A stretch of DNA of 13,530 bases. It comes from a virus (taxonomy: Duplodnaviria; Heunggongvirae; Uroviricota; Caudoviricetes). Under the pieces are notes generated by a model that was not told where the DNA came from, did not search any database, and saw only the letters and a list, made by a program, of their open reading frames with translations. Positions 8,542 through 9,351 of this stretch are shown piece by piece (within the stretch, counting starts at the first letter, position 1; the number at the start of each line of letters is the position of its first letter). Position numbers and translations under genes: made by a program. Where the stretch lies: IMG/VR virus record IMGVR_UViG_3300044623_001231. One strand, given 5' to 3'.

Positions 8542-8773
8542 TTGCGTTCTTTATTATTTTATGTTGTTGTTCTATCATGTGATTGAGGAATACCTCAACC
8601 GCTTGTTCTCTACTCCACTTCTTAGGATATACCAACCTATTACCCATTGGTATATACTCTTTTTTAATAAGCCCACTTCCTTTCGGTTCTTCCAATAGAA
8701 ACCACTCACCATCTACCTCTTTGAGATAGAGTAGGTTTTGTTGTTCTCTATTATTAGCTACCTGCTCTCCCAT
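8480..8773 (-). CDS. Hypothetical protein
   Basis: Start moved to ATG 8773 (MGEQVANN) with the A-rich leader AATAAAAGTGAAT. The longer TTG start would lie inside the tRNA-like element. Confidence 0.7.
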   Translation of the reverse strand: MGEQVANNREQQNLLYLKEVDGEWFLLEEPKGSGLIKKEYIPMGNRLVYPKKWSREQAVEVFLNHMIEQQHKIIKNANEWIRIAEQLGLGEHIRKSR

Positions 8774-8788
8774 ATTCACTTTTATTCG

Positions 8789-8860
8789 AGCGGAGAGTTG
8801 GAGCCGCCCCAACACCTTCTACCTGGTAGGTAGATGTCTTACTCTCAAGACCTCCTCCGC
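8789..8860 (-). tRNA. Atypical tRNA-Gly-like RNA, anticodon ACC (copy 2)
   Basis: GCGGAGG AG GTCT TGAGAGTA AGAC A TCTAC CT-ACC-AG GTAGA AGGT GTTGG GGCGGCT CCAAC TCTCCGC T. Complete 7/4/5/5 cloverleaf with U73, non-canonical T-loop, no encoded CCA. Confidence 0.85.
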
Positions 8861-8959
8861 AATTAATAGAACGATATCCGGCTTTAGTATCCCACTGCCT
8901 TATTGCAGTAGTATTCACACATTCGGTTTTATTAGATGTTGGCTTCAACCATTCTTTTG

Positions 8960-9031
8960 AGCGGAGAGATGAAACCGCCTCACCTCCTCCATATTGGTAA
9001 TATGGCGACTTTCTCTTAAGTCTTTCTCCGC
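8960..9031 (-). tRNA. Atypical tRNA-Gly-like RNA, anticodon ACC (copy 1)
   Basis: GCGGAGA AA GACT TAAGAGAA AGTC G CCATA TT-ACC-AA TATGG AGGA GGTGA GGCGGTT TCATC TCTCCGC T. Complete cloverleaf with U73, non-canonical T-loop, no encoded CCA. Confidence 0.85.
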
Positions 9032-9077
9032 AAATATCTTAGTAACGTTAGAGTTCTGTCTCAATCACATCACTATG

Positions 9078-9127
9078 TAAAGATACGAAATTTAATCGAT
9101 ATATCCTAATTAAATCTCTTTTATTTT
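9078..9127 (-). promoter_or_regulatory. Degenerate Bacteroidota-type promoter driving the tRNA-like pair
   Basis: -7 TATCTTTA (9085-9078), 20-nt spacer, -33 TTAG (9109-9106), AAAATA at 9127-9122. Confidence 0.65.
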
Positions 9128-9351
9128 ATAGAGAGGCCAGCCAATTGGCTCAAACTCTCTGAAAAATCTACACCGGCAATAACATTGCTTTCCTTTGGAA
9201 CCCCATTAGTTTCCCACTCCCTATTAATGAAGTAATCTAACTTACGATGAGCTGAATCAACTCCTCTTAGGTCACCACTAGCTACAGCCTCATTTAGCTG
9301 TGCAGTCCAATATTTGATTTTAGGCCAATAGCCACTTTCATACTTACTCAT
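9121..9351 (-). CDS. Hypothetical protein
   Basis: 76-aa ORF preceded by the TTTAAACCCTTA motif. Confidence 0.78.
   Translation of the reverse strand: MSKYESGYWPKIKYWTAQLNEAVASGDLRGVDSAHRKLDYFINREWETNGVPKESNVIAGVDFSESLSQLAGLSIK

Follow-up and report, generated by a model that had tools for sequence, protein, structure and literature searches.

What does a phage gain from two transfer RNA (tRNA)-like RNAs that lack most of the canonical tRNA core? This question is raised by a stretch of 13,530 nucleotides (hereafter, the window, meaning the whole stretch analysed), which corresponds to positions 143979-157508 of the 270,865-bp virus record IMGVR_UViG_3300044623_001231 (33% GC, rated complete). 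An earlier note on this DNA had singled out positions 8789-9031, i.e., both copies of a minus-strand RNA and the 98-nt spacer between them, and had interpreted their unusual loop nucleotides as a rewired tertiary core. With somewhat better than even confidence, we favour the reading that the two RNAs are dedicated, probably translation-insulated tRNAGly that feed the phage's own Mom enzymes, relatives of the DNA-modifying enzyme of phage Mu.

Both RNAs are real cloverleaf structures, which confirms the original observation. Each copy is 73 nt long and is made up of stems of 7 bp (acceptor), 4 bp (D), 5 bp (anticodon) and 5 bp (T) with loops of 8 nt (D), 7 nt (anticodon), 4 nt (variable) and 7 nt (T), and 21 of the 21 stem pairs are formed in both (coordinates in Table 1). 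Seven of these pairs differ between the copies by compensatory double changes, a value reached by 2 of 500 shuffles, and the minimum-free-energy (MFE) folds of both copies are likewise cloverleaves (z = -2.8 and -3.0). In covariance-model scoring, copy 1 reached 98.3 bits with R1 and 83.5 bits with R2. The nucleotides that the earlier note had listed for both copies in standard numbering, namely A8, U14, A18, G19, G54, G55, C56 and G58, are all present, and the T loops (GGCGGCU and GGCGGUU) and D loops (UGAGAGUA and UAAGAGAA) agree with its description to the letter. Set against the canonical tRNA core (U8, A14, G18-G19 and T54-Psi55-C56-R57-A58, with Psi denoting pseudouridine and R a purine), only G19, C56 and R57 are kept, the last of these as G57. 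ARAGORN called 0 tRNA genes in the window, and Rfam returned nothing at the gathering threshold and no tRNA match even at E<=10 in the RNA region. The tRNA-like families of Rfam (viral tRNA-like structures, Y RNA/YrlA, mascRNA and transfer-messenger RNA [tmRNA]) were unmatched as well, and the three matches to unrelated families that the region did give are at chance level (E 0.5-3).

The determinants of aminoacylation point to glycine. The bacterial identity set for glycyl-tRNA synthetase (GlyRS), reportedly defined by Giegé et al. in 1998, comprises G1-C72, C2-G71, G3-C70, U73, C35 and C36. This set is present in full in both window copies, and the same elements are kept in relatives that were found by covariance model alone, with no pattern constraint imposed. 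The next-best match of the two-copy covariance model was the phage's own tRNA-Gly(UCC) (37.7 bits, E = 8e-7), and the two RNAs, as judged from their sequences, are divergent paralogues of tRNAGly. Anticodons in the family are UCC, CCC or ACC only, and the anticodon can differ at the same locus between close relatives, being ACC in the window and UCC in the syntenic copy of relative G001. In the window copies, U73-C74 is followed by G or A, so that no CCA is encoded; many other family members encode it directly after U73 (UCCA). A homologue of CCA-adding enzymes is encoded by the phage; this PF01743 open reading frame (ORF) of 246 aa adjoins the phage's cluster of ordinary tRNAs (genome positions 174079-174492 and 179964-186124). 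No class-II aminoacyl-tRNA synthetase core was found in the phage by a search that left aside the alpha/beta-type GlyRS families. There is therefore no support for an alpha2-type GlyRS encoded by the phage, and charging would fall to the host GlyRS.

How widespread such RNAs are was addressed along several routes, which together uncovered >100 distinct relatives in viral and bacterial assemblies. A synteny route, consisting of a capsid-based search followed by covariance-model searches of whole records, led to single homologues in two complete relatives, one of which carries the same two small flanking genes. A first pattern scan, in which A8, AGAG at positions 16-19 and GCG at positions 55-57 were forced and <1 random match is expected, returned 38 viral loci. 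To avoid circularity, positions 8, 9, 14-21 and 54-60 were left free in a second scan that forced stem and identity positions; it yielded >118 loci with 102 distinct sequences, among them canonical phage tRNAGly that serve as an internal contrast. The covariance model was also run on 80 loci chosen solely because they encode Mom, and further, more divergent members of the family were recovered there. In 24 distinct family members, 97.4% of stem cells are paired and 15 pairs show compensatory change. Other searches came back empty: a pattern built from the exact loop sequences of both copies gave 3 chance matches only, none of them a cloverleaf, and a DNA similarity search of GenBank phages gave no match. 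Neither did 17 fragmentary capsid-related contigs contain a match to the RNA, a null result that carries no information, given the ~80 kb between the RNA and the capsid gene.

These searches also brought up a number of structural variants. Pair 7-66 is a G7/A66 mismatch in 13 of the 24 aligned members, mostly high-GC, Mom-adjacent ones, and is G-U and A-U in the window copies. A divergent Mom-adjacent subfamily, reached by the covariance model only, has GCG/CGC acceptor ends, A8 and G55 and, on the 3′ side of its T stem (CCGACC), an additional A that is bulged and conserved; it is represented by L184:843-916, L185:797-870, L187:1204-1278, L193:3566-3639, L208:1109-1182 and L175:3602-3669. A separate class of phage tRNAGly (L264, L276, L279, L280, L283, L297 and L309) has A8, U14 and U21, keeps G18/U55 in its canonical form, shows a swapped T-loop pair, A54/U58 (ATCGTTA), and encodes CCA; Mom was not found in the records of this class, one 240-kb contig included. 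Odd tRNAGly variants with G33 (loop CGUCCAG) occur in complete Mom-encoding jumbo phages (L333, L336 and L337; G097 and G098), one of them with a ~20-nt D-loop insertion; the covariance-model scores of all these variants are at the level of canonical tRNAs only.

Does the altered core still form an elbow? The idea of coordinated change at interacting positions, which the earlier note had put forward from two copies, is borne out by the homologues. Among the 102 distinct sequences of the second scan, positions 18/55 are A/G in 56 and G/U in 46, with no mixed state, and positions 54/58 are G/G in 46, U/A in 45, A/U in 10 and C/A in 1, while G19-C56 is kept in 94 of them. The two modules assort independently of each other, such that every combination is seen, and the non-interacting control pairs 18/54, 14/58 and 17/55 mix freely. 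Clean double switches on nearly identical backbones were found for 54/58 (L128 versus L100) as well as for 18/55 (L224 and L233 versus L230 and L244). On a tree built without the elbow columns, ~10 switches are seen for 18/55 and ~11 for 54/58, both sides always changing together, whereas the control comparison of 18 with 54 shows no co-switching; the partners within each pair, in other words, do not vary independently. Concordant contrasts amount to 4/4 and 3/3 on supported branches and to 10 and 8 on all branches. Because the well-supported branches offer too few independent pairs (3-4) for sign tests to reach significance, the case for covariation rests on the lack of mixed states and on the clean double switches. 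Together with the preserved G19-C56, the coupled 18/55 and 54/58 states support an elbow between D loop and T loop that would be retained but built from alternative tertiary pairs, with A18/G55 and G54/G58 presumably isosteric with their canonical counterparts.

The part of the rewiring proposal that concerns A8 and U14 fared differently. These had been taken as a swapped U8-A14, yet position 14 pairs with position 21: in 90 A8 sequences, 14/21 is C-G in 43, U-A in 37, U-U in 8, U-G in 1 and A-G in 1, position 48 tracks this pair, and the MFE folds of both window copies already draw it. Since 14 and 21 covary in Watson-Crick fashion, the reading as a reversed U8-A14 needs revising, and the D arm, with an invariant A8 docked on it, more likely comprises a 5-bp stem and a 6-nt loop. 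An idea tried in this context, namely that the choice between C14 and U14 is forced by an overlapping mom frame that has to avoid TAA or TGA stops, was rejected because, in the common frame, position 14 falls on the second base of a Ser or Leu codon. That the RNAs have lost the target bases of TrmA, TruB and ThiI (U54, U55 and U8, respectively), as also stated in the earlier note, is read directly from the sequence.

What, then, could a tRNAGly with such a core be used for? In phage Mu, the GNAT enzyme Mom takes glycine from Gly-tRNAGly and attaches it to N6 of adenine in double-stranded DNA, after which an on-base rearrangement yields 6-NcmdA and thereby blocks restriction; Gly-tRNAAla is rejected (Silva et al., Nat Commun 2026, PMC13219725). 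When ORFs around the 38 loci of the first scan were clustered, Mom (Pfam PF25680) emerged as the dominant neighbour, with a Mom ORF within ~1.5 kb on the same strand at 23 of the 38. Mom is found in the locus of 54/61 A8/C14 instances, 2/71 A8/U14 instances and 0/19 canonical U8/A14 instances. In most high-GC members, Mom lies directly upstream of the RNA; the A8/U14 members belong to large AT-rich phages in which mom is far off (30-100 kb in jumbo phages). Seen from the side of the enzyme, an RNA occurs within 3 kb in 17 of the 80 loci chosen for Mom, always co-oriented and mostly directly downstream of it, and L165 and L180 have an RNA copy just upstream. The bacterial genome collection contributed 11 true members, located in metagenome-assembled genomes (MAGs) of Planctomycetota, Verrucomicrobiota and Anaerolineales, and in 10 of these Mom ends 0-20 nt upstream of the RNA; two MAG pattern matches that do not fold as a cloverleaf are without Mom.

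The link also holds at the level of whole genomes. Of the records with a completeness of at least 90% and an A18/G55 member, all 10, this phage included, encode Mom (2-3 genes), and none of 20 records with canonical U8/A14 tRNAGly matches does. With 152.5 and 150.7 bits, the two Mom genes of the phage (genome positions 258827-259510 and 260006-260671) exceed the PF25680 cut-off of 27.1 bits, and their products align with Mu Mom (PDB 8BV8), the equivalents of its catalytic residues R111 and S124 being invariant in the Mom alignment (with the offset of the Mu numbering deduced from the S124A crystal construct). The two paralogues stand in tandem and are 45% identical; in related jumbo phages, 2-3 Mom genes are accompanied by 1-2 RNAs. 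This link to Mom, which like the glycine identity had escaped the earlier note, likely supplies the reason for the rewiring of the core.

Where mom and the RNA abut, their arrangement is peculiar. In 47 of 50 distinct junctions, the mom frame has no stop before the RNA and reads through all of it, to stop 2-130 nt past its end (~460 nt in one case); examples are L105:8573-9388 (RNA at 9215-9287), L100, L111, L117, L128 and L328. Cleavage by RNase P would therefore leave a non-stop mom mRNA, and lack of cleavage a Mom protein with a tRNA-encoded tail, and either outcome would physically couple the enzyme to its co-substrate. The same junctions could be explained if the RNAs were cis-acting processing or stability elements, i.e., tRNA-like punctuation marks at which RNase P or RNase Z would cut so as to shape neighbouring mRNAs including that of mom: processing there would truncate the message, and in the window one transcription unit comprises the RNAs and the small gene on either side of them. 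However, RNAs of jumbo phages that lie 30-100 kb from mom keep the same conserved loops and glycine identity, and a processing signal needs neither C35, C36 and U73 nor covarying elbow pairs, all of which makes this explanation very improbable.

Linkage to Mom would also fit any RNA that binds it. The RNAs might thus be tRNAGly mimics that act as regulators or decoys, either binding Mom to curb its toxicity or time its activity or else soaking up host factors that target tRNAGly, for instance tRNA nucleases or GNAT toxins by which Gly-tRNAGly is acetylated. Mom expression in Mu is toxic and tightly controlled (PMC3378877), and the changes to the elbow, like the loss of modification sites, could shut out host readers. 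Yet the complete GlyRS identity set, U73 and an often encoded CCA are strictly retained, which argues that charging with glycine matters, given that a pure binder has no need of C35/C36 in conjunction with acceptor determinants. Moreover, the ORF clustering around the 38 first-scan loci revealed no defence or toxin gene as a conserved neighbour. A regulator or decoy is accordingly quite unlikely in our view. Attachment sites, anticodon-nuclease decoys and retron or CRISPR-type RNAs were also considered and dropped, there being no supporting neighbour or repeat.

Hints of expression come from RNA-library data, which consist of Logan contigs with small shares; ends, strand and level cannot be read from such contigs, and an uncovered part carries no meaning. 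An 81-nt metatranscriptome contig covers 8959-9032 and is a weak hint that copy 2 is expressed. For related phages, RNA-library contigs bridge both copies and the spacer; the samples are of freshwater, wetland and marine origin.

A number of observations weigh against a dedicated Mom donor. Both window copies retain U33, A37 and a 7-nt anticodon loop and, for this reason, may decode GGU. They are located ~106 kb from the mom genes, so that the link in this phage is one of co-occurrence rather than adjacency. Mu Mom accepts all ordinary E. coli tRNAGly isoacceptors (PMC13219725), meaning that Mom could in principle do without a private tRNA. When the covariance model was applied to four other jumbo phages that are complete and encode Mom, it gave scores at the level of canonical tRNAs only and no strong match. 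Members with a canonical G18/U55 and U54/A58 elbow have Mom in 15/17 instances, and rewiring of the elbow is therefore not needed for the link. Conversely, A8/U14 is found in a few Mom-free phages, among them a complete one of 354 kb whose A8/U14 tRNAGly has kept the canonical state at 18/55. Lastly, the RNA-library contigs may stem from DNA carry-over.

Part of this evidence would suit a working translational tRNAGly that reads GGU/GGC in an AT-rich phage by means of its ACC anticodon, perhaps deaminated to ICC, with the co-occurrence of Mom reflecting either the replacement of drained Gly-tRNA or shared phage ancestry. In addition to the intact anticodon loop and regular cloverleaf of the window copies, such a function would be in keeping with a phage that invests heavily in translation (25 tRNAs and a tmRNA) and with the presence of A8/U14 tRNAGly with otherwise canonical loops in phages without Mom. 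The wider family tells against it. U33 is found in 33 of 55 distinct A8 + A18/G55 members (the remainder being A in 17, G in 3 and C in 2), a loss in 40%, as compared to 11/11 canonical phage tRNAGly in the same scan; G34 is never used in the family, and A34 is common. Furthermore, U54, U55 and G18 are replaced, the RNAs lie ~27 kb away from the separate cluster in which the 25 ordinary tRNAs and the tmRNA reside, the anticodon is free to change among UCC, CCC and ACC at the same locus in close relatives, and a general decoder would not be expected to be so tightly linked to mom in phages of unrelated types. Taken together, a role in decoding appears unlikely, and we prefer the dedicated glycine donor.

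How might such a donor work? Starting from the structure, the family, the tertiary covariation, the glycine identity elements and the genomic linkage to Mom, which are established directly here, we infer that it is processed, charged, used by Mom and kept out of translation. The RNAs would be transcribed from their own unit and matured by RNase P and 3′ trimming, upon which CCA could be added post-transcriptionally, the phage having a CCA-adding-enzyme homologue. Glycylation by the host GlyRS would turn them into donors of activated glycine for the two Mom enzymes of the phage, leading to 6-NcmdA in double-stranded DNA and hence to resistance against restriction. The rebuilt core (A8, Y14-R21, where Y is a pyrimidine, A18/G55 and G54/G58), the lost modification sites and the relaxed anticodon loop would most likely exclude this pool from translation and/or tune it to Mom, in parallel to the staphylococcal non-proteogenic tRNAGly that feed Fem transferases. 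A tRNA gene embedded in mom would, in addition, physically couple the production of enzyme and co-substrate. Extending this to the family, we consider it an evenly balanced proposition that many phages carry a private, translation-insulated tRNAGly for DNA-adenine hypermodification by Mom, whose L-shape is held by alternative covarying contacts, namely A18/G55, G54/G58 or A54/U58, Y14-R21 and A8, and whose gene is often embedded in frame in the 3′ end of the mom ORF.

The surroundings of the RNAs in this phage offer few further clues as to function. Both flanking genes keep the same arrangement around the RNA in relative G001 (L098), and in the region between copy 2 and the upstream gene the blocks GGATATATC, ATTTCGTAT and GTGATTGAGA are conserved in this syntenic relative, which makes a promoter probable there (Table 1). 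None of four small neighbour proteins, both flanking ones included, has a Pfam or PHROG match, and a search for related loci with the downstream 98-aa protein found no close relatives. An ORF of 64 aa listed at the spacer (8754-8948) overlaps the RNAs and is probably spurious. The tag encoded by the tmRNA of the phage is AVELSTMTFEDAMSFVGADYAVAA. The exact stretch 8700-9130 is present in 14 lake-water metagenome runs.

Table 1. Position of the two RNAs, their key nucleotides and adjacent features in the window.
Feature	Position	Strand	Basis or detail
Downstream flanking gene, 98 aa	8480..8776	minus	ATG at 8776; beside the RNA in relative G001 too
tRNA-like copy 1	8788..8860	minus	Sequence, MFE fold, 21/21 stem pairs, covariance-model scores
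Copy 1, ends	G1 = 8860, C72 = 8790, U73 = 8789, C74 = 8788	minus	
Copy 1, anticodon ACC	8827-8825	minus	Anticodon loop CUACCAG
Copy 1, core	A8 = 8853, U14 = 8847, A18 = 8843, G19 = 8842, A21 = 8840	minus	
Copy 1, T loop	G54 = 8808, G55 = 8807, C56 = 8806, G58 = 8804	minus	
Spacer between copies	8861..8958	minus	98 nt
tRNA-like copy 2	8959..9031	minus	Sequence, MFE fold, stem pairs, covariance-model matches
Copy 2, ends	G1 = 9031, C72 = 8961, U73 = 8960, C74 = 8959	minus	
Copy 2, anticodon ACC	8998-8996	minus	Anticodon loop UUACCAA
Copy 2, core	A8 = 9024, U14 = 9018, A18 = 9014, G19 = 9013	minus	
Copy 2, T loop	G54 = 8979, G55 = 8978, C56 = 8977, G58 = 8975	minus	
Leader and promoter region (putative), upstream of copy 2	9032..9120	minus	Alignment with relative G001
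Upstream flanking gene, 76 aa	9121..9351	minus	Beside the RNA in relative G001 too

Going beyond this locus, the proposed function gives a concrete and testable role to RNAs that were missed by every standard annotator. The chemistry by which Mom uses tRNAGly has already been published; new here would be the partner and the core architecture of a tRNAGly of the non-proteinogenic type. Neither PMC13219725 and its 2023 preprint nor a jumbo-phage survey that mentions Mom describes tRNAs that are encoded by phages and linked to mom, and full-text searches of other literature found none either. The published chemistry would thus be extended in that phages are suggested to bring their own donor tRNA, besides scavenging that of the host. 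If this is true, translation would have given up a tRNA to a GNAT transferase for a second time and independently, by a logic convergent to that of staphylococcal Fem. The RNAs would then be the first tRNA dedicated to modifying DNA, and among non-proteinogenic tRNAGly they would form only the second class in nature. The family can further be seen as a natural mutagenesis series of the tRNA elbow, with coupled alternatives at 18/55, 54/58 and 14/21 that should be useful for RNA structure rules, tRNA detection models and the design of orthogonal tRNAs. Finally, the RNA may serve as a compact genomic marker of momylated phage DNA in metagenomes.

Three known systems lend themselves to comparison. 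With canonical tRNAGly (RF00005 and the phage's own tRNA-Gly(UCC)), the RNAs share the dimensions of the cloverleaf, the glycine identity set and G19-C56. They differ from it by A8 in place of U8, a Y14-R21 pair where A14 would be, A18/G55 in place of G18/Psi55 and G54/G58 in place of T54/A58; the window copies, moreover, lack an encoded CCA, lie outside the tRNA cluster and escape both ARAGORN and Rfam.

The Mom system of Mu is matched in that this phage and all near-complete relatives carrying the RNA encode Mom homologues that pass the Pfam cut-off and have conserved equivalents of R111 and S124. Mu, however, uses host tRNAGly, which is described as scavenging with no mention of a phage tRNA (PMC13219725), whereas a special tRNAGly gene is carried along with mom here, often abutting it, and jumbo phages have 2-3 mom paralogues.

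A further parallel is found in staphylococci, in which the NP1-NP3 tRNAGly of S. aureus and S. epidermidis are the glycine donors for synthesis of the peptidoglycan bridge by FemX/A/B (PMC7826273, PMC13443448). These non-proteogenic (NP) tRNAGly are without G18-G19 and U55, carry TGC or TGT where the T loop would otherwise read TTC, are hypomodified and are excluded from translation (PMC7826273, PMC13443448). Under the proposed role, both they and the phage RNAs would be extra tRNAGly charged by a normal GlyRS for a transferase of GNAT fold outside the ribosome. Both have lost G18 and U55, with G55 giving TGC in the T loop, and both have lost usual modification sites, the phage RNAs lacking U8 and U54 as well. 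Yet the partner is a different one: the conserved neighbour and co-occurring enzyme of the family is Mom (PF25680), which acts on DNA, and not Fem, which acts on the cell wall. Also unlike NP tRNAGly, the phage RNAs are encoded by a virus, have A8 and not 4-thiouridine at position 8 (s4U8), keep G19-C56, compensate A18 with G55, in many cases carry G54/G58, and retain an anticodon loop of 7 nt with anticodons that include ACC and CCC.

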